From: Eledone cirrhosa
Lineage: Eukaryota
Assembly (NCBI GenBank): GCA_964016885.1
Contig: OZ024745.1
Coordinates: 11,470,001 to 11,534,000 of the forward strand
Direction: 5' to 3'
DNA: 64,000 bases
The position numbers were made by a program, and so were the translations under genes. Of the stretch, positions 1 through 64,000 are shown piece after piece. The notes beneath the pieces are model-generated. The model had not been told where the DNA came from. It did no database searches and saw nothing but the letters and a program-made list of their open reading frames with translations. Numbering within the stretch: the stretch's first letter is position 1; each line of letters begins with the position of its first letter.

Positions 1-3000
1 ATGGATGTGAGATAAAGAGAGTGAGAGAATGGATGTGAGATAGAGAGAGTGACGAATGGATGTGAGATAGAGAGAGTGAGAGAATGGATGTGAGATAAAG
101 ATAGTGAGAGAATGGATGTGAGATAGAGAGAGTGAGAGAATGGATGTGAGATAGAGAGAGTGAGAGAATGTATGTGAGATAGAGAGAGTGAGAGAATGGA
201 TGTGAGATAGAGAGAGTGAGAGAATGGATGTGAGATAGACAGAGTGAGAAAATGGATGTGAGATAGAGAGAGTGAGAGAATGGATGTGAGATAGAGAGAG
301 TGAGAGAATGGATGTGAGATAAAGAGAGTGAGAGAATGGATGTGAGATAGAGAGAGTGAGAGAATGGATGTGAGATAGAGAGAGTCAGAGAATGGATGTG
401 AGATAAAGAGAGTGAGAGAATGGATGTGAGATAAAGAGAGTGAGAGAATGGATGTGAGATAAAGAGAGTGAGAGAACGGATGTGAGATAGAGAGAGTGAG
501 AGAATGGATGTGAGATAAAGAGAGTGAGAGAATGGATGTGAGATAGAGAGAGTGAGAGAATGGATGTGAGATAGAGAGTGTGAAGAATGGATGTGAGATA
601 GAGAGAGTGAGAGAATGGATGTGAGATAGAGAGAGTGAGGGAATGGATGTGAGATAAAGAGAGTGAGGAATGGATGTGAGATAGAGAGAGGAGAATGGAT
701 GTGAGATAAAGAGAGTGAGAGAATGGATGTGAGATAAAGAGAGTGAGAGAATGGATGTGAGATAAAGAGAGTGAGAGAATGGATGTGAGATAGAGAGAGT
801 GAGAGAATGGATGTGACATAGAGAGAGTGAGAGAATGGATGTGAGATAGAGAGAGTGAGAGAATGGATGTGAGATTAAGAGAGTGAGAAAATGGATGTGA
901 GATAGAGAGAGTGAGAGAATGGATGTGAGATAAAGAGAGTGAGAGAATGGATGTGAGATAGAGAGAGTGAGAGAATGGATGTGAGATAGAGAGAGTGAGA
1001 GAATGAATGTGAGATAGAGAGTGAGAGAATGGGTGTGAGATAAAGAGAGTGAGAGAATGGATGTGAGATAGAGAGAGTGAGAGAATGGATGTGAGATAAA
1101 GAGAGTGAGAGAATGGATGTGAGATAAAGAGAGTGAGAGAATGGATGTGAGATAAAGAGAGTGAGAGAATGCATGTGAGATAAAGAGAGTGAGAGAATGG
1201 ATGTGAGATAGAGAGAGTGAGCGAATGGATGTGAGATAGAGAGTGAGAGAATGGATGTGAGATAAAGAGAGTGAGAGAATGGATGTGAGATAGAGAGAGT
1301 GAGAGAATGGATGTGAGATAAAGAGAGTGAGAGAATGGATGTGAGATAGAGAGAGTGAGAGAATGGATGTGAGATAGAGTGAGTGAGAGAATGCATGTGA
1401 GATAGAGAGAGTGAGCGAATGGGTGTGAGATAGAGAGAGTGAGAGAATGGATGTGAGATAAAGAGAGTGAGAGAATGGATGTGAGATAGAGAGAGTGAGA
1501 GAATGGATGTGAGATAAAGAGAGTGAGAGAATGAATGTGAGATAGAGAGTGAGAGAATGGATGTGAGATAGGGAGAGTGAGAGAATGGATGTGAGATAGA
1601 GAGACTGAGAGAATGGATGTGAGATAAGAGAGTGAGAGAATGGATGTGAGATAAAGAGAGTGAGAGAATGGATGTGAGATAGAGAGAGTGAGAGAATGAT
1701 GTGAGATAGAGAGTGAGAGAATGGGTGTGAGATAAAGAGAGTGAGAGAATGGATGTGAGATAGAGAGAGTGAGAGAATGGATGTGAGATAAAGAGAGTGA
1801 GAGAATGGATGTGAGATAGAGAGTGAGAGAATGGATGTGAGATAGAGAGAGTGAGAGAATGGATGTGAGATAGAGAGAGTGAGAGAATGGATGTGAGATA
1901 AAGAGAGTGAGAGAATGGATGTGAGATAGAGAGAGTGAGAGAATGGATGTGAGATAGAGAGAGTGAGAGAATGGATGTGAGATAGAGAGAGTGAGAGAAT
2001 GGATGTGAGATAAAGAGAGTGAGAGAATGATGTGAGATAAAGAGAGTGAGAGAATGGATGTGAGATAGAGAGAGTGAGAGAATGGATGTGAGATAGAGAG
2101 TGAGAGAATGGATGTGAGATAAAGAGGTGAGAGACTGGATGTGAGATAGAGAGAGTGAGAGAATGGATGTGAGATAGAGAGAGTGAGAGAATGGATGTGA
2201 GATAGAGAGAGTGAGAGAATGGATGGGAGATAAAGAGAGTGAGAGAATGGATGTGAGATAAAGTGAGTGAGAGAATGGATGTGAGATAGAGAGTGTGAGA
2301 GAATGGATGTGAGATAGAGAGAGTGAGAGAATGGATGTGAGATAGAGAGAGTGAGAGAATGGATGTGAGATAGAGAGAGTGAGAGAATGGATGTGAGATA
2401 GGAGAGAGTGAGAGAATGGAAGTGAGATAGAGAGAGTGAGAGAATGGATGTGAGATAGAGAGAGTGAGAGAATGGATGTGAGATAGAGAGTGAGAGAATG
2501 GATGTGAGATAGAGAGAGTGAGAGAATGGATGTGAGATAGAGAGAGTGAGAGAATGGATGTGAGATTGAGAGAGTGAGAAAATGTATGTGAGATAGAGAG
2601 AGTGAGAGAATGGATGTGAGATAAAGAGAGTGAGAGAATGGATGTGAGATAGAGAGAGTGAGAGAATGGATGTGAGATAGAGAGAGTGAGAGAATGAATG
2701 TGAGATAGAGAGTGAGAGAATGGGTGTGAGATAAAGAGAGTGAGAGAATGGATGTGAGATAGAGAGAGTGAGAGAATGGATGTGAGATAAAGAGAGTGAG
2801 AGAATGGATGTGAGATAAAGAGAGTGAGAGAATGGATGTGAGATAAAGAGAGTGAGAGAATGGATGTGAGATAAAGAGAGTGAGAGAATGGATGTGAGAT
2901 AGAGAGAGTGAGCGAATGGATGTGAGATAGAGAGAGTGACAGAATGGATGTGAGATAAAGAGAGTGAGAGAATGGATGTGAGATAGAGAGAGTGAGAGAA

Positions 3001-6000
3001 TGGATGTGAGATAGAGAGAGTGAGAGAATGGATGTGAGATAGAGAGAGTGAGCGAATGGGTGTGAGATAGAGAGAGTGAGAGAATGGATGTGAGATAAAG
3101 AGAGTGAGAGAATGAATGTGAGATAGAGAGTGAGAGAATGGGTGTGAGATAAAGAGAGTGAGAGAATGGATGTGAGATAGAGAGAGTGAGAGAATGGATG
3201 TGAGATAAAGAGAGTGAGAGAATGGATGTGAGATAGAGAGTGAGAGAATGGATGTGAGATAGAGAGAGTGAGAGAATGGATGTGAGATAGAGAGAGTGAG
3301 AGAATGGATGTGAGATAAAGAGAGTGAGAGAATGGATGTGAGATAGAGAGAGTGAGAGAATGGATGTGAGATAGAGAGAGTGAGAGAATGGATGTGAGAT
3401 AGAGAGAGTGAGAGAATGGATGTGAGATAAAGAGAGTGAGAGAATGGATGTGAGATAAAGAGAGTGAGAGAATGGATGTGAGATAGAGAGAGTGAGAGAA
3501 TGGATGTGAGATAGAGAGTGAGAGAATAGATGTGAGATAAAGAGGGTGAGAGACTGGATGTGAGATAGAGAGAGTGAGAGAATGGATGTGAGTTAGAGAG
3601 AGTGAGAGAATGGATGTGAGATAGATAGAGTGAGAGAATGGATGTGAGATAGAGAGAGTGAGAGAATGATGTGAGATAGAGAGTGAGAGAATGGGTGTGA
3701 GATAAAGAGAGTGAGAGAATGGATGTGAGATAGAGAGAGTGAGAGAATGGATGTGAGATAAAGAGAGTGAGAGAATGGATGTGAGATAAAGAGAGTGAGA
3801 GAATGGATGTGAGATAAAGAGAGTGAGAGAATGGATGTGAGATAAAGAGAGTGAGAAAATGGATGTGAGATAGAGAGAGTGAGCGAATGGATGTGAGATA
3901 GAGAGAGTGAGAGAATGGATGTGAGATAAAGAGAGTGAGAGAATGGATGTGAGATAGAGAGAGTGAGAGAATGGATGTGAGATAAAGAGAGTGAGAGAAT
4001 GGATGTGAGATAGAGAGAGTGAGCGAATGGAAGTGAGATAGAGAGAGTGAGAGAATGGATGTGAGATAGAGAGAGTGAGAGAATGGATGTGAGATAGAGA
4101 GTGAGAGAATGGATGTGAGATAGAGAGAGTGAGAGAATGGATGTGAGATAGAGAGAGTGAGAGAATGGATGTGAGATTGAGAGAGTGAGAAAATGTATGT
4201 GAGATAGAGAGAGTGAGAGAATGGATGTGAGATAAAGAGAGTGAGAGAATGGATGTGAGATAGAGAGAGTGAGAGAATGGATGTGAGATAGAGAGAGTGA
4301 GAGAATGAATGTGAGATAGAGAGTGAGAGAATGGGTGTGAGATAAAGAGAGTGAGAGAATGGATGTGAGATAGAGAGAGTGAGAGAATGGATGTGAGATA
4401 AAGAGAGTGAGAGAATGGATGTGAGATAAAGAGAGTGAGAGAATGGATGTGAGATAAAGAGAGTGAGAGAATGGATGTGAGATAAAGAGAGTGAGAGAAT
4501 GGATGTGAGATAGAGAGAGTGAGCGAATGGATGTGAGATAGAGAGAGTGAGAGAATGGATGTGAGATAAAGAGAGTGAGAGAATGGATGTGAGATAGAGA
4601 GAGTGAGAGAATGGATGTGAGATAAAGAGAGTGAGAGAATGGATGTGAGATAGAGAGAGTGAGAGAATGGATGTGAGATAGAGAGAGTGAGAGAATGGAT
4701 GTGAGATAGAGAGAGTGAGCGAATGGGTGTGAGATAGAGAGAGTGAGAGAATGGATGTGTGATAAAGAGAGTGAGAGAATGAATGTGAGATTGAGAGTGA
4801 GAGAATGGGTGTGAGATAAAGAGAGTGAGAGAATGGATGTGAGATAGAGAGAGTGAGAGAATGGATGTGAGATAAAGAGAGTGAGAGAATGGATGTGAGA
4901 TAGAGAGTGAGAGAATGGATGTGAGATAGAGAGAGTGAGAGAATGGATGTGAGATAGAGAGAGTGAGAGAATGGATGTGAGATAAAGAGAGTGAGAGAAT
5001 GGATGTGAGATAGAGAGAGTGAGAGAATGGATGTGAGATAGAGAGAGTGAGAGAATGGATGTGAGATAGAGAGAGTGAGAGAATGGATGTGAGATAAAGA
5101 GAGTGAGAGAATGGATGTGAGATAAAGAGAGTGAGAGAATGGATGTGAGATAGAGAGAGTGAGAGAATGGATGTGAGATAGAGAGTGAGAGAATGGATGT
5201 GAGATAAAGAGGGTGAGAGACTGGATGTGAGATAGAGAGAGTGAGAGAATGGATGTGAGTTAGAGAGAGTGAGAGAATGGATGTGAGATAGATAGAGTGA
5301 GAGAATGGATGTGAGATAGAGAGAGTGAGAGAATGAATGTGAGATAGAGAGTGAGAGAATGGGTGTGAGATAAAGAGAGTGAGAGAATGGATGTGAGATA
5401 GAGAGAGTGAGAGAATGGATGTGAGATAAAGAGAGTGAGAGAATGGATGTGAGATAAAGATAGTGAGAGAATGGATGTGAGATAAAGAGAGTGAGAGAAT
5501 GGATGTGAGATAAAGAGAGTGAGAAAATGGATGTGAGATAGAGAGAGTGAGCGAATGGATGTGAGATAGAGAGAGTGAGAGAATGGATGTGAGATAAAGA
5601 GAGTGAGAGAATGGATGTGAGATAGAGAGAGTGAGAGAATGGATGTGAGATAAAGAGAGTGAGAGAATGGATGTGAGATAGAGAGAGTGAGAGAATGGAT
5701 GTGAGATAGAGAGAGTGAGAGAATGGATGTGAGATAGAGAGAGTGAGCGAATGGGTGTGAGATAGAGAGAGTGAGAGAATGGATGTGAGATAAAGAGAGT
5801 GAGATAATGGATGTGAGATAGATAGAGTGAGAGAATGGATGTGAGATAAAGAGAGTGAGAGAATGAATGTGAGATAGAGAGTGAGAGAATGGATGTGAGA
5901 TAGGGAGAGTGAGAGAATGGATGTGAGATAGAGAGACTGAGAGAATGGATGTGAGATAAAGAGAGTGAGAGAATGGATGTGAGATAAAGAGAGTGAGAGA

Positions 6001-7788
6001 ATGGATGTGAGATAGAGAGAGTGAGAGAATGAATGTGAGATAGAGAGTGAGAGAATGGGTGTGAGATAAAGAGAGTGAGAGAATGGATGTGAGATAGAGA
6101 GAGTGAGAGAATGGATGTGAGATAAAGAGAGTGAGAGAATGGATGTGAGATAGAGAGAGTGAGAGAATGGATGTGAGATAAAGAGAGTGAGAGAATGGAT
6201 GTGAGATAGAGAGTGAGAGAATGGATGTGAGATAAAGAGAGTGAGAGACTGGATGTGAGATAGAGAGAGTGAGAGAATGGATGTGAGATAGAGAGAGAGA
6301 GAATGGATGTGAGATAAAGAGAGTGAGAGACTGGATGTGAGATAGAGAGAGTGAGAGAATGAATGTGAGATAGAGAGAGTGAGAGAATGGATGTGAGATA
6401 GAGAGAGTGAGAGAATGGATGTGAGATAAAGAGAGTGAGAGAATGGATGTGAGATAAAGAGAGTGAGAGAATGGATGTGAGATAGAGAGAGTGAGAGAAT
6501 GGATGTGAGATAGAGAGTGAGAGAATGGATGTGAGATAAAGAGAGTGAGAGACTGGATGTGAGATAGAGAGAGTGAGAGAATGGATGTGAGATAGAGAGA
6601 GTGGGAGAATGGATGTGAGATAGAGAGAGTGAGAGAATGGATGGGAGATAAAGAGAGTGAGAGAATGGATGTGAGATAAAGTGAGTGAGAGAATGGATGT
6701 GAGATAGAGAGAGTGAGAGAATGGATGTGAGATAGAGAGAGTGAGAGAATGGATGTGAGATAGAGAGAGTGAGAGAATGGATGTGAGATAGAGAGAGTGA
6801 GAGAATGGATGTGAGATAGAGAGAGTGAGAGAATAGATGTGAGATAGAGAGAGTGAGAGAATGGATGTGAGATAGAGAGAGTGAGAGAATGGATGTGAGA
6901 TAAAGAGAGTGAGAGAATGGATGTGAGATAGAGAGAGTGAGAGAATGGAAGTGAGATAGAGAGAGTGAGAGAATGGATGTGAGATAGAGAGAATGAGAGA
7001 ATGGATGTGAGATAGAGAGAGTGAGAGAATGGATGTGAGATAGAGAGAGTGAGAGAATGGATGTGAGATAAAGAGAGTGAGAGAATGGATGTGAGATAAA
7101 GAGAGTGAGAGAATGGATGTGAGATAAAGAGAGTGAGAGAATGGATGTGAGATAAAGAGAGTGAGAATGGATGTGAGATAGAGAGAGAGTGAGAGAATGG
7201 ATGTGAGATAGAGAGAGTGAGAGAATGGATGTGAGATAGAGAGAGTGAGAGAATGGATGTGAGATAGAGAGAGTGAGAGAATGGATGTGAGATAAAGAGA
7301 GTGAGAGAATGGATGTGAGATAAAGAGAGTGAGAGAATGGATGTGAGATAGAGAGAGTGAGAGAATGGATGTGAGATAAAGAGAGTGAGAATGGATGTGA
7401 GATAGAGAGAGTGAGAGAATGGATGTGAGATAGAGAGAGTGAGAGAATGGATGTGAGATAGAGAGAGTGAGAGAATGGATGTGAGATAGAGAGAGTGAGA
7501 GAATGGATGTGAGATAAAGAGAGTGAGAGAATGGATGTGAGATAAAGAGAGTGAGAATGGATGTGAGATAGAGAGAGTGAGAGAATGGATGTGAGATAGA
7601 GAGAGTGAGAGAATGGATGTGAGATAGAGAGAGTGAGAGAATGGATGTGAGATAGAGAGAGTGAGAGAATGGATGTGAGATAAAGAGAGTGAGAGAATGG
7701 ATGTGAGATAAAGAGAGTGAGAGAATGGATGTGAGATAAAGAGAGTGAGAGAATGGATGTGAGATAGAGAGAGTGAGAGAATGGATGT
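1..7788. repeat. 28-bp purine-rich satellite (ATGGATGTGAGATA[G/A]AGAGAGTGAGAGA)n, about 280 units, open at window start
   Basis: Direct tandem periodicity. The ORFs at 385-7875 are its translation. Confidence 0.98.
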
Positions 7789-8776
7789 TCTAATTCGCCA
7801 CCGTCGTTTGTATTTGATATTAACATATTTCTGGCAAGTACGATTATTCCCGATATGTTTCGAATATAATCTCACCTTCTCAGCTAAACATAACTCTTTG
7901 CCTTACTTGACTGTATTGGCGATCAATAACTATACAACGATCCAGTTATTGAACTAACCGATTGGAAATTTATAATAATAGATTGAAGTGAAACCCAACA
8001 GGTGCGTGTGATTTTATTGGCGGCATGACCCCACCAAAATATAATATACATATACATATATGTTTATATATATAGATATATGTAATAATAGTAATAAGAA
8101 TATTTATATATGTTTGATATAACTATAAATATGGAGGGTAGTACTAAGTACTAGCCGGTTACCGGTATGACAAAAGGCTCAATGCAAATTTTCAAGTGTC
8201 TTACAGAGCCGAGATACAAAGTGTTAAAACGATCAAATTTTAGTTTAGAACATTTATTTGCTTACAATTGTTTCTTCCAGAGGGAAGTCTGGATTCATCG
8301 GAGCATAAGGAATGTCAAAACATGTAACTAAAATCCTAGTCATTTAGAACATTTAGGTTACATAATTATTATTAGTGTCAAAGGCATCGTGTGGAAAGTC
8401 AGCAGTTAAAAATATGTTCTGCTTGAAAGAACACAATTACAGGCAGCACTGGTTGGAAGTGTAGTAGGTATAAGTAAAAAGCACAAGCAAAAAATCACAA
8501 GCAAAAAATAACACAGGAAAAAAAGTTATAAGCAAGGAAAATTAGATATATGTATATATATGCATGCGTGGTATATGCAGGGATATATATATATATATAA
8601 ATCAAGAAAGAAGAGTGACACTGTTTGCTATACAAAAATCACCGCGTACTCGCAGCATCACTATGGAAACGCCTTGTTGAGTCAAACTTAGCCAAGTGTT
8701 GCTACCATCCACTACTCGGAGTACCCTAACTGGACTACATCTAAGTGGACTACCCATAACAATAATCTGTTATCCC

Positions 8777-32525: not shown

Positions 32526-32827
32526 CTATATGTATATATATATATATATATCTTTTGCCCTTTCATTTTCCTTTACTGGTTCCAGTCAATGAACTGCGGC
32601 CGAGATTTTAGTCGATTATATCGACCTAACTCCGTCTTTCTGTCTGGGACAGTTTAACGATCCATATTTCTTCTCGGTGTCTGTGTTTATGCTGTGTCAG
32701 GCCACGGTTTGTATCAAGACACACAAGCACACACACTAGCTGAGCACCGAGTGTATGTATGTGTAAGTGTGTGTGTGAAAGTGTGTGTCTGTGTGTGTGA
32801 ATATATATAGTAGTAATAATATAGTCA

Positions 32828-32882
32828 CAGATGTTCCCGCTTAGGGTGAAAGTAGAAATTGTTTACTTAAACTTTTAATCTG
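32828..32882 (+). ncRNA. Hammerhead-like motif, U4A family, degenerate copy lacking the 5' stem I strand
   Basis: CAGAUGU-UCCC-GCUUA-GGGU-GAA-AGUAG..UUACU-U-AAACU. Confidence 0.5.
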
Positions 32883-32890
32883 CGCTAATA

Positions 32891-33077
32891 ATTGTTTCTA
32901 CTTTTGGCATAAGGCCAGCAATTACCCAGTGCATTACTGGTACTTTATTTTATCGACCCCGTAAGGATGAAAGGCAAAGTTAACCTCGGCGGGATTTGAA
33001 CTCAATCTGTAAAGGGACGTAACTATGCTAGAAAGCATGGCGTCCAACCCTCTACCGATACTGCCAATTCACCGCTC
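32891..33077 (-). mobile_element. SINE-A short variant
   Basis: Near-identical to 26612-26796; CTGCGCTAATAAT on both sides. Confidence 0.92.
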
Positions 33078-33135: not shown

Positions 33136-33181
33136 ATGAAGAAAAACATTAGAGACGGTACAGGACGGTACAACTTTAAGC

Positions 33182-33258
33182 ACAGAATCGCTGTAAAGAG
33201 TTTCAGAAGAACCGGTTAAGGGTGAAAGCAACGATTCTTTGCTTAAACTTTAATCTGT
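33182..33258 (+). ncRNA. Type I hammerhead-like motif, U4A family
   Basis: AGUUU-CAGAAGA-ACC(GGUUAAG)GGU-GAA-AGCAA(CGAUUCU)UUGCU-U-AAACU. Confidence 0.65.
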
Positions 33259-33272
33259 TATTTTAATAAATA

Positions 33273-33496
33273 CTAGCAGAATGGCCCGGCGTTGCTCGGG
33301 ATTCTAAACATAGATTGGCATGTTTATCCCTCCTTTCTGAAACAGTTTCGTCGTTTGTTCACCAATTGATCCAGAAGTCCTAATAAAAAGTGAAGTCGCC
33401 TTGGGTAAATAGGCAAATCACTTTCCATTAAGATTTTTCAAAAGCATGTAATTGCGTTCCCTCACTTTTTCTTTGTTGTTTTTGCTGCTGTCGAGC
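33273..33496 (-). mobile_element. Helitron 3' end (other boundary uncertain)
   Basis: Minus strand CCCGAGCAACGCCGGG hairpin followed by CCATTCTG-CTAG-T. Confidence 0.6.
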
Positions 33497-35643: not shown

Positions 35644-35719
35644 ACAGATTATAGTTTAAGCGAAGAATCCCTGCTTTCACCCTTAACGGGATCTTCTGAA
35701 CATTAAAAAATCAATCTGT
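35644..35719 (-). ncRNA. Type I hammerhead-like motif, U4A family
   Basis: Homologous to 63414-63489; CAGAAGA-UCCC-GUUAA-GGGU-GAAAGC; some stem mismatches. Confidence 0.6.
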
Positions 35720-60493: not shown

Positions 60494-62037
60494 ACACATA
60501 TAGTAATCTATTCGATATTACTATGGGCTCAAGTGATTCTGCCCAAATTACTGATCTTGTGGGCCTCTTTCTTCTTTTCAACATAAATGCTTCCTTTCCC
60601 CACCTTAAAGGTGGTTTATATCGTGACGACTATCTTCTTCTTTCCAATAACCTTAGCCTTTCAGAGATAGAAACAAATAAAAACCTTATAAGAACTTTCC
60701 TTAAAGACTATTATAGTCTAGATATTACATTTGAAAACACAAGTAAAGTAGTTAATTTCCTTGATATAACATTAGACTTATCTACGGGTATCTACCAACC
60801 TTACCATAAACCTAACCAACATTTACACTACATACACTCACAATCTAATCACCCTAAGTCTATCCTTAAAAACCTTGCATATAATATATCACTTAGAATT
60901 TCTAACCTTTCGTCTAACCAGGATGTATTTGATAAAAATACGACCTTTTATAACGAAGCTCTAGCTAGAAGTGGCCACAAAAATAAATTAGTATATATAC
61001 CTTCTACCAATAACACTACAAACATACAACCTAATATTACCAACAAACACCAAATGAAACATACACACCTAATGGCCACTCACACTATACCCCAAAATAC
61101 CAACATAAAACCAAATTTCTCTAACTCTTCTAATATACAATATAGTAACTCTCAAAAAACCACTCATCCTACAACTCTAATAAATGGTAATAATAAAACT
61201 CCTAATAAACAAGCTAAAACACCTAAATCAATAAATCTAACTAAAAATGTGTGTGGTGAAGTCATTAACAATAATTCTCTTAATAAACATCAGGATACAT
61301 CCTATAAAAACAATAAACAACATCGAAACCGTAATAGACGAGTTACTTGGTATAATGCTCCATTTAATTTACAAATTAAGGATAATATACCTAAAAAATT
61401 CTTTAATATCCTAGAGAAGAACTTCCCGCCAAACCACAAATACCATCAAATTTTAAATAGATCAACGGTTAAATTCTCCTACTCAACAACCAAAAACATA
61501 AAACAAAATATAAGTGCCTACAATGCATATAAATCTAAAAAAACCATGAGTATACCACCAGTACATCAAACTAACCATAATATCTCCTCGGATACAGGAT
61601 TCACGAAAAGTTGTAACTGTAGAAACAAGGCAAACTGCCCATTAAAAGGAAATTGCCTTGTTAATAACATAGTATATAAATGTAAAGTTAACACTAAAGA
61701 CTCAATTTATTCATATATAGGAGCTACCTCTAACAAATTTAAGGTAAGATTTAATACCCACAAACATAGCTTTAAAAATGCCGCACTAGCTAATACAACA
61801 TCTCTAGCTGAAATAATTAATAATTATGGAAAGAGGAATATAGATTATGACCTGACCTGGAGTGTGCTCAAAAGGGCCACCCCTTATCAAAATAATAGAT
61901 ATGAATGTAGATTATCTTCCCAAGAACTTTTTGAAATAATGAAATCTAAGGATATCCTATTAAATAAGCGACAGGAATTAATAATATCGTGTAATCACAA
62001 ACTGAGAAAAACCTTTAAATATTATAAACCTAATTAA
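60493..62037 (+). CDS. 5'-truncated PLE polyprotein (RT C-terminal half and GIY-YIG endonuclease), tentatively Nematis-like
   Basis: FDITMGS..AQITDLVGL, GLYRDD, NFLDITL, YHKP, SNHP, CNCR..CPLKGNC, IVYKCKV..YIGAT..FKVRFNTH and LLNKRQE; open for about 515 aa. Confidence 0.9.
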
Positions 62038-62307
62038 TATACATCTTAGAAATTAATATATAAACTGTTTTTAATTTAGTTAACCTATAATTAATATTCT
62101 ACTACTGATGAACTACATAATTTTACTTTCCTTCTTACAACTATCATTTCCTAAAACTGATACCATTAAGTAAACATATATAATGCTTTAATTTCAGGTT
62201 ATGACTCTATGTTCCTTGAAATCTCTATATATTTATTATAAATTTAACTCCCCCCCAAATAATTATATGTATGTGTATGCATGTATGTGTGTATATATAT
62301 ATATGTA

Positions 62308-63270: not shown

Positions 63271-63329
<59 letters not shown>

Positions 63330-63413
63330 ATGATAATAAATTTGAAGACTAAAATCCAAAGAGGGCTCGATAAGGATAAATATATATATATAGAGCAAAT
63401 ATTTATTAAAATA

Positions 63414-63489
63414 ACAGATTAAAGTTTAAGCAAAGAATCGCTGCTTTCACCCTTAACGGGATCTTCTGAAACTAACAAAGTCAATCTGT
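63414..63489 (-). ncRNA. Extended type I hammerhead-like motif, U4A family (best copy)
   Basis: ACAGAUUGA(CUUUGUU)AGUUU-CAGAAGA-UCCC(GUUAA)GGGU-GAA-AGCAG(CGAUUCU)UUGCU-U^AAACU-UUAAUCUGU. Confidence 0.72.
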
Positions 63490-63559
63490 GAACGCAGAAG
63501 TGAATATTTCAAAAAACGTTGCAACCGGAGGAAGACAGGAAGACGATACTTTGTTTCGT

Positions 63560-63830
63560 GGAAACGTTCCCTGGCAAAGAACGGGAAAAAACGAATATAA
63601 TACGTCATTAATTGGAGCGGTGAAAAACAATTACGCGCAAAGACAAAACCATGTTTATGGTATAAAAGAAGTCGTAGACTAATATTCTATTAGGTCGTTC
63701 ATAGAGACGTTCTCTGGCAATGAACGAAAAAAATGAAGATAATACGTCATATGTGGAGCGGGGAGAACAATTGCACGCAAAGACAAAACCACGTAAATGG
63801 TATAACTGAAGTCGTAGACTAAAATTCTAA
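63560..63830. repeat. Two direct copies of an approximately 125-bp unit upstream (minus sense) of the U4A HHR
   Basis: ACGTTC.CTGGCAA...GAAGTCGTAGACTAA at about 63565-63690 and 63707-63830. Confidence 0.85.
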
Positions 63831-64000
63831 CTAGGAAACCGAATGATTCTCGGCTTCAGAGTTAAGAATAAAGTAAATAAAATACAGAGGTTATTGAAAT
63901 TAAATAAATACATACACGCATCCATATACGTACATACACAAGCATACGCGAAAACACTCGCCATAGGTATACAAATACACGCACGTACACCCCCCCCCCA

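Follow-up and report, generated by a model that had tools for sequence, protein, structure and literature searches.

Position U4 of the hammerhead core is held to be near-invariant and search descriptors demand CUGANGA, so that a selected U4A core would mean that descriptors miss real motifs; clades of Penelope-like elements (PLEs) that are reported to be hammerhead-free may hide such variants. Does the motif at positions 63414-63489 of the window (the whole 64,000-nt stretch of Eledone cirrhosa DNA analysed here), which has the shape of a hammerhead with A at position 4, represent such a case, and which element carries it?

Architecture of the motif in the window

The window contains four copies of the motif, the features of which are as follows.

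63414..63489, minus strand: complete hammerhead-shaped motif of type I topology with the core CAGAAGA, PLE subfamily A2
63481..63489, minus strand: 5' arm of the outer stem I, partner 63422-63414, 9 bp including one G.U, pair probabilities 0.72-1.0
63474..63480, minus strand: U-rich 7-nt bulge in stem I, which varies by subfamily
63469..63473, minus strand: stem I 5' arm AGUUU, with its first A (63473) as the putative capped transcription start of the family, judged from the 5'-end hot spot and the extra G in other copies
63462..63468, minus strand: core C3 A4 G5 A6 A7 G8 A9, the canonical U4 being replaced by A4 at 63467
63449..63461, minus strand: U10.1, stem II CCC/GGG with the 5-nt loop GUUAA, and U11.1
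63429..63448, minus strand: G12 A13 A14, 5-bp stem III (A15.1-U16.1, G-C, C-G, A-U, G.U) and 7-nt loop 3
63427..63428, minus strand: cleavage site predicted by hammerhead numbering, after U17 of CUU
63326..63427, minus strand: 5' leader ('tail') of the element, here shortened by a small internal loss and bordered at its end by (TA)n, the end agreeing with the second family-wide 3' end (+114 to +117)
63490..63987, minus strand: PLE 3' UTR, running on beyond the window edge
35644..35719, minus strand: copy of subfamily B, decayed and 5'-truncated, with an inverted stub of the tail upstream of it
33199..33258, plus strand: short copy whose first letter is the A of AGUUU, preceded by a non-native G at 33198, and with an inverted arm at 33172-33193
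32823..32883, plus strand: old subfamily-C copy (N7 = U, stem III AGUA/UACU, mutated stem I and A9), starting at the stem I edge

The 63414 copy fits a type I hammerhead letter by letter except for A4 and a U.U at 10.1/11.1. Its three helices surround the core and are open at stem I, all modelled pairs are standard, and across 63 copies the modelled pairs are formed in 95% of cells. Compared with the core C3 U4 G5 A6 N7 G8 A9, the motif deviates at position 4 alone and keeps C3-G8. The elements G12 A13 A14, A15.1-U16.1 and the NUH triplet are present as GAAA and CUU, the same in all compared subfamilies, and U.U takes the place of an R10.1-Y11.1 pair. An earlier sequence-only reading of the window had described stem I AGUUU/AAACU with a 9-bp helix beyond a 7-nt bulge in the best copy, stem II CCC/GGG, GAAA, a 4-5 bp stem III, CUU and a predicted cut at 63428/63427, all of which we recovered in the 63414 copy (stem III there with 5 bp), and it was correct in placing A at core position 4 in all four copies. 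Its statement that the four copies fit a type I hammerhead stood in part: all four exist, but only 63414 is whole, the other three being damaged or truncated. The 33199 copy is without the outer arm and has a G.G in stem II, stems I and III are broken in the 35644 copy, and the 32823 copy has stem I AGUCA/AAACU and A9U. The possibility that the 32823 copy was a deletion was rejected, as subfamily C shows the CAGAUG core to be genuine. The 63414 copy itself belongs to an insertion of which it forms the inverted arm; the direct arm, bearing a second motif, falls immediately beyond the window edge (L046:460-709).

ViennaRNA gave the hammerhead model of the 63414 copy -13.0 kcal/mol versus -15.1 kcal/mol for the minimum free energy (MFE) fold (z -0.63), in which the proximal stem I is broken; pair probabilities were 0.05-0.08 for the proximal stem I, and the outer helix and stem II were backed, stem III weakly. 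No match to an Rfam hammerhead family was obtained at E<=10 for 63380-63520, nor was there any among the matches listed for the whole window (150 of 236), in agreement with the earlier expectation that standard models would miss the motif.

Abundance and the letter at position 4

A 28-nt pattern with position 4 left free matched the 3.0-Gb genome 21,247 times, the reversed control 0 times and the U4 version 96 times; position 4 was A in all 100 of the listed matches. Using a 23-nt pattern beginning at the predicted cut site, we obtained 40,409 genome matches. Among its first 100 consecutive copies, an unbiased run, 80 were colinear over the core, with 76 A4 and 4 T. Position 4 was also A in 22/22 copies of subfamily C and in 87 of the 100 listed copies of subfamily D. 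The motif is thus non-random, with tens of thousands of copies in the genome, and A4 is the majority letter in all sampled subfamilies; the genome-wide consensus, checked for a U at this position, is A. The generic pattern CAGANGAT...TGAAAS gave 53,569 overlapping matches, of which 99 of the 100 listed belong to the A4 PLE family, while its CUGANGAT version gave 146,310 overlapping matches (control 658) from several other families. Since the A4-type pattern comes almost entirely from one family and the U-type from several others, A4 marks this PLE lineage among canonical neighbours.

U4 as an ancestral subfamily was considered and rejected, the U4 copies being mostly junction products: 5' ends or inversion junctions account for 9 of the 12 U4 loci fetched, and head-to-head junctions were found at a TTC-A-GAA quasi-palindrome (L192, L193, L195, L206, L209 and L216). 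A search for a close U4 sister family with P0003 (56%) matched only the A4 PLE family among 71 scored matches. Enrichment of U4 copies at 5' ends and head-to-head junctions was seen at L031, L034, L038, L039, L041, L192 and L193. At L034, each junction pairs one U4 arm with one A4 arm, which suggests templating within the TTC-A-GAA quasi-palindrome.

The carrier element

The flanks of the motif contain RT and GIY-YIG frames. An endonuclease query returned 70,007 first-look candidates, and the 150 that were scored were 98-100% identical, many of them in open frames of about 713 codons. In 7 of the 20 fetched long copies the motif occurs twice, about 150 nt 5' of the ATG and about 950 nt past the stop; its positions are -177 and +3082 relative to the ORF frame, and the element unit is 3,259 nt long. 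The single intact ORF of 709 aa contains RT plus GIY-YIG at its C-terminal end, with YRDD at 346, VY...YIG at 583, RWR at 37, DKT at 115, CNCRNRADC at 564 (CxCX5C), CDLC at 662 (CxxC) and CKH at 690 (CxH), and CCHH is absent between GIY and YIG. The 709-aa protein had no Pfam match, while a 39%-identical homolog matched GIY-YIG; its database homologs are 38-56% identical and nearly all unnamed. An RWK-type motif, DKT, a CxCX5C linker, the lack of CCHH, and CxxC with CxH are features of the Hydra clade as described in PMC8557442. The element also has pLTRs, an inverted 5'-truncated arm, an optional tail and (TA)n targets, and the place near the 3' end where a Hydra-clade element is expected to bear a canonical hammerhead is occupied, but by the A4 motif.

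Judged from protein motifs and a by-eye comparison with the published alignment, on which the clade assignment rests, the carrier is a young, very abundant, autonomous Hydra-type PLE, and the motif is its putative pLTR hammerhead. Of the two carriers suggested from the sequence alone, the PLE terminus was therefore right, and the retrozyme-like element was not, as the PLE is autonomous with an intact ORF. A non-LTR retrozyme was rejected because the copies are truncations of a 3.26-kb coding element, not short non-coding tandem repeats. Hydra-1_Obim was rejected as the carrier on its different hammerhead and N-terminus, and a DNA transposon or MITE was rejected after the ORF was discovered.

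Constraint and covariation among subfamilies

The copies sort into subfamilies A1, A2, B, C and D. We compared columns among A1, A2, B and C (78, 10, 19 and 22 copies, respectively), counting a column as changed when the majority letter differed or when C had a second letter at >=30%. With B and some A rows pattern-selected over the core and most A1 rows taken from protein searches, changed columns numbered 1 of 56 in the core and stems (a CpG), 11 of 20 in the loops, bulge and N7, 31 of 86 in the upstream flank and 5 of 22 downstream. Excluding the 18 core and stem columns fixed by the pattern that retrieved subfamily C, 1 of 38 was changed (p 7e-6 versus loop/bulge/N7 and 3e-5 versus upstream). 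The sole core letter changing between subfamilies is N7, while C3, G5, A6, G8, A9 and G12-A14 are fixed; the bulge U's and the 3' A of loop 2 are conserved between subfamilies, and loop 2 is 6 nt long in subfamily D. In contigs of runs X1 and X4, of which X1 is possibly the assembly's own sample, there were 0 variants at >=8% over the 72-nt stretch that reaches from the bulge end beyond the outer stem (L093:4599-4670), 2 in the bulge and 12 in the 85 nt upstream (4500-4584), with the loops likewise invariant; X5 and X6 are represented by one contig each. The invariance of core and stems beside change in loops, bulge and N7 is a sign of selection, and N7 varying amid fixed catalytic letters is the pattern that would be expected of a catalytic core.

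These columns bear directly on the idea that U4 was lost neutrally in a single master copy and that the unconstrained motif has been decaying since. Hitch-hiking in a successful master is conceivable, and the stems are without compensatory change. The A4 letter and the core have persisted, though, while subfamily flanks differ at about a third of columns and decayed ORF remnants of those subfamilies are about 60-83% identical in protein, so that the column comparison largely refutes the idea, which we consider highly improbable.

Covarying stems had also been claimed, and this part failed. Across the genome the stem III swap AGUA/UACU has 16 instances, about 10 of them in the main loop type, a number that independent mutation could reach given a chance expectation of up to 10-19 doubles, an upper bound with G>A seen in 0/80; each of the two changes is a C>T within GCA, one on either strand. 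Two-sided changes made up 7 cells in 63/117 distinct complete copies (2/500 shuffles), and the apparent excess arises because 5 of the 7 are rows chosen via the AGUA/UACU pattern itself. No compensatory change was found at the subfamily level in any helix, and the change from G.U to A-U at the end of stem III, previously taken as compensatory, is one-sided (7/63 copies). What supports a function is the invariance of core and stems across subfamilies, not covariation, and the function so supported is a putative one.

Ends of the copies

The 3' ends from 89 distinct contexts fell mostly into two zones past the cut site, +23 to +29 (62 ends) and +114 to +117 (24 ends). The 5' ends of 100 consecutive copies included 25 lying 37-50 nt upstream of the predicted cut site, just before the core, another 9 within stem III, no more than 1 at the cut site and 20 beyond 390 nt. 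The letter before the A of AGUUU was G in 20 of 37 pooled copies ending near there, and in 17 of 21 when native letters and three G templated by the inverted arm were excluded. Counted by hand once per junction, from a pool that includes pattern-selected loci, with three ambiguous D cases left out and the window 33199 copy included, 12 of 16 unambiguous junctions had G (p 4e-5). These 5' starts just before the core, and the extra G carried by most of the copies that begin precisely at the A of AGUUU, are new here. Separately, 5 of the 100 consecutive copies (L248, L251, L268, L290 and L302) begin at one point 96 nt upstream of the cut site, which perhaps marks a non-autonomous derivative.

An untemplated 5' G is described as a copied-cap mark for L1/SVA in PMC4859970. 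The extra G at the A of AGUUU accordingly suggests that the RNA is likely capped and starts on stem I, that the short copies derive from uncut RNA, and that uncut RNA probably often serves as template. The TTAGTT/TCAGTT at the putative start resembles the invertebrate Inr, a likeness that also suits the view, weighed below, that the fold is catalytically dead and retained in part as an initiator; by eye, no match to a DPE-like consensus was present at +28 to +32.

Among 44 full-length copies that extend to the ATG, the end falls in the leader in 17, shortly after the cut site in 3 and beyond the start site in 24, so that 24 of the 27 crossing the cut site continue beyond the start site; their junction letter at the start point is native, not G, in 26/26 (not de-duplicated). 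Within single insertions, the upstream part and the 3' end had 42 rare variants in common in 11,090 columns (20 pairs), and inverted arms had 51 in 9,862 columns (21 pairs), compared with a background sharing between insertions of 8e-5 per column. This sharing within insertions indicates that one template unit was copied more than once, seamlessly over the cut site. The seamless second round is explained by a circle, ligated or held by stem I, and also by strand transfer on uncut RNA.

Function of the motif and competing explanations

From the placement of the motif, A4 in all sampled subfamilies and the invariance of core and stems, we favor, with a probability of roughly 0.55, a terminal-repeat hammerhead fold of the PLE with fixed U4A that is a predicted cutter, slow or protein-assisted. 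A capped transcript would start at the first A of stem I, leaving the cap-proximal motif copy without the outer helix and bulge, and reverse transcription would begin about 25 or 116 nt past the cut site. Uncut RNA would often be copied up to the cap, giving many short copies with the extra G, while some RNAs would likely be cut at both ends and held or ligated via the 14-bp stem I into a 3,259-nt circle, from which seamless copies longer than the unit could be made. According to published work, a natural U4C is weak in vitro and functional in vivo (PMC3088659), PLE hammerheads are slow (PMC4209133), and the Poseidon hammerhead cuts only with PLE protein, uncut RNA being the main template (PMC11167929). 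Several points count against this reading, namely a full mutant scan in which every CUGA single mutant was weak and only a C3/G8 swap rescued (PMC9901934), the finding that no more than 1 copy in 100 begins at the cut site, the lack of covariation and the MFE fold; the invariance could instead be a promoter or protein-binding constraint. Since U4 is a defining letter and A stands in its place, we file the motif as a hammerhead-derived variant, not as a canonical member.

The main rival is that U4A has rendered the fold catalytically dead and that it is kept as a transcription initiator in its 5' arm and as a protein landing and RT start signal in its helices, longer-than-unit copies being products of read-through transcripts or of strand transfer on uncut RNA from one repeated end to the other. 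This is a possibility we take seriously without preferring it. The putative start at stem I and the RT starts just downstream of the motif on uncut template agree with it, as do published reports that cutting is dispensable in vitro for Poseidon, whose hammerhead mutants insert unaffected (PMC11167929), that Naiads thrive without canonical hammerheads (PMC8557442) and that U-turn mutants are weak (PMC9901934). On the other hand, the fixation of unpaired C3, G5, A6, G8, A9, G12, A13 and A14 with N7 alone varying is a catalytic and not a generic-helix pattern, the outer helix lies upstream of the start site and is formable only at the 3' copy or an end-to-end junction, and full-length copies have no cap-derived G at their junction.

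At the other extreme, it seems unlikely to us that the motif is an efficient monomeric ribozyme with U4A fully rescued by the long stem III and by a contact between bulge and loop 2, and the monomer competence proposed by the sequence-only reading is doubtful in the sense of an efficient cutter. The 5-bp stem III with its non-palindromic loop, the 14-bp stem I, the conserved bulge U's and loop 2 3' A, and the monomeric cutting of fungal PLE hammerheads with a long helix III (PMC4209133) speak for it. The ends, however, show that capped, uncut RNA is often reverse transcribed and that few or no 5' ends lie at the cut site, ViennaRNA predicts a competing fold, and CUGA mutants were weak in the scan cited above. 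A more specific and tentative version of the cutting fold, which we find rather doubtful, is a tuned, ligation-biased U4A ribozyme, where the capped 5' copy without the outer helix would stay mostly uncut and the 3' copy or end-to-end junction, with its 14-bp stem I, would close the circle for rolling-circle reverse transcription; if true, it would be a case of a core that works although it departs from the accepted consensus, and would give genomic evidence on the role of PLE hammerheads.

Comparison with known hammerheads

Among the closest known systems, the type I hammerheads of Hydra-clade PLEs (Craig et al. 2021, PMC8557442) have the same position at the 3' end and in the pLTR, the same CNGANGA-U...U-GAAA frame, the U...U at 10.1/11.1 being common there, and a short stem II. 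These elements also have the same (TA)n targets and a protein with RWR, DKT, CxCX5C and no CCHH between GIY and YIG. The Hydra-clade cores listed there are all ctga, while the Eledone cirrhosa element has A4, G15.2-C16.2 with CUU, an extra 9-bp helix, a unit of 3.26 kb and a 7-nt non-palindromic loop 3 in place of 1-3 nt. Stem III is accordingly less distinctive than had been thought, 3-4 bp being already known in the clade, but the longer non-palindromic loop 3 is new.

Minimal PLE hammerheads, as given by Cervera and De la Pena 2014 (PMC4209133), likewise occupy both pLTRs of an RT/GIY-YIG element and occur as massive dispersed truncated copies and opposite-strand pairs, and the cut-circularise-copy model proposed for them fits the seamless second rounds seen here. 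Their core stays CUGANGA (with U3-A8 in one family), helix III is small or absent and a dimeric mode of action is assumed for them, whereas in the Eledone cirrhosa motif helix III is complete and the core is U4A. Poseidon of Anolis (PAc; Frangieh et al. 2024, PMC11167929) similarly has two RT start sites downstream of the hammerhead, making an optional tail, uses uncut RNA as the main template (here it would often be the template) and has AT-rich targets; it belongs to a different clade, with a hammerhead that extends over the start of the ORF and that, in vitro, cuts when assisted by protein. The tail of the Eledone cirrhosa element is about 90 nt of 5' leader, and its hammerhead, unlike that of Poseidon, is a predicted cutter. 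Non-LTR retrozymes (PMC7229834; bioRxiv 10.64898/2026.07.22.740005) share a type I hammerhead in an animal repeat and are short non-coding tandem repeats, in contrast to the coding 3.26-kb element.

Natural core variants that are known to be tolerated include a U10.1.U11.1 mismatch and, at position 4, the change U4C (Perreault et al. 2011, PMC3088659), and U4A is not named in the portions of its text and supplement that were searched. Such variants are rare there, whereas U4A is fixed in tens of thousands of Eledone cirrhosa copies. In the literature and supplement text searched, we found no report of a U4A or CAGANGA-core hammerhead, although Lunse et al. 2017, Ambros and Flores 1998 and Nelson and Uhlenbeck 2008, which lie outside that text, may contain one; for hammerheads in octopus Penelope, the literature searched gave no title on the A4 motif. 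As a natural one-letter variant beside canonical families in one genome, the family offers a clean test of the PLE hammerhead role, its assets being copies that are young and intact, a pair of RT start sites and a putative capped start on stem I.

Other repeats in the window and the genome

The window begins with about 8 kb of purine-rich tandem repeat (1-8000) with a GC skew near 0.98. Eleven SINE-core matches were detected, including 32905-33020, with a core that presumably resembles octopus SINEs, and the stretch at 33272-33310, right after the 33199 copy, resembles a Helitron-type end. Another repeat family contributes two minimal hammerheads with a canonical CUGAUGA core, at 49963 on the plus strand and 38318 on the minus strand. 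A second Hydra-type PLE (44-49% protein identity) has left decayed RT and endonuclease pieces at 60511-62040 on the plus strand, with no hammerhead by eye in the 380 nt following this remnant.

At least six canonical-core PLE-type hammerhead families were seen in the genome (first 5 Mb of G000:C1; L180-L191). One of them shares G15.2-C16.2 and CUU with the A4 motif and another has a CC/GG stem II with a GCUAA loop; these two could be used as in-genome controls. Fragments of further Hydra-type families were found at L120:2180-3082 (32% protein identity) and L220:27-1307 (42-60%). In metagenome contigs L143-L146, a distant Hydra-type ORF has a canonical hammerhead about 250 nt downstream, close to the published Hydra-1_aMil motif (PMC8557442), and the 4 of 7 metagenome loci with a hammerhead represent one distant canonical family of about 40% identity.
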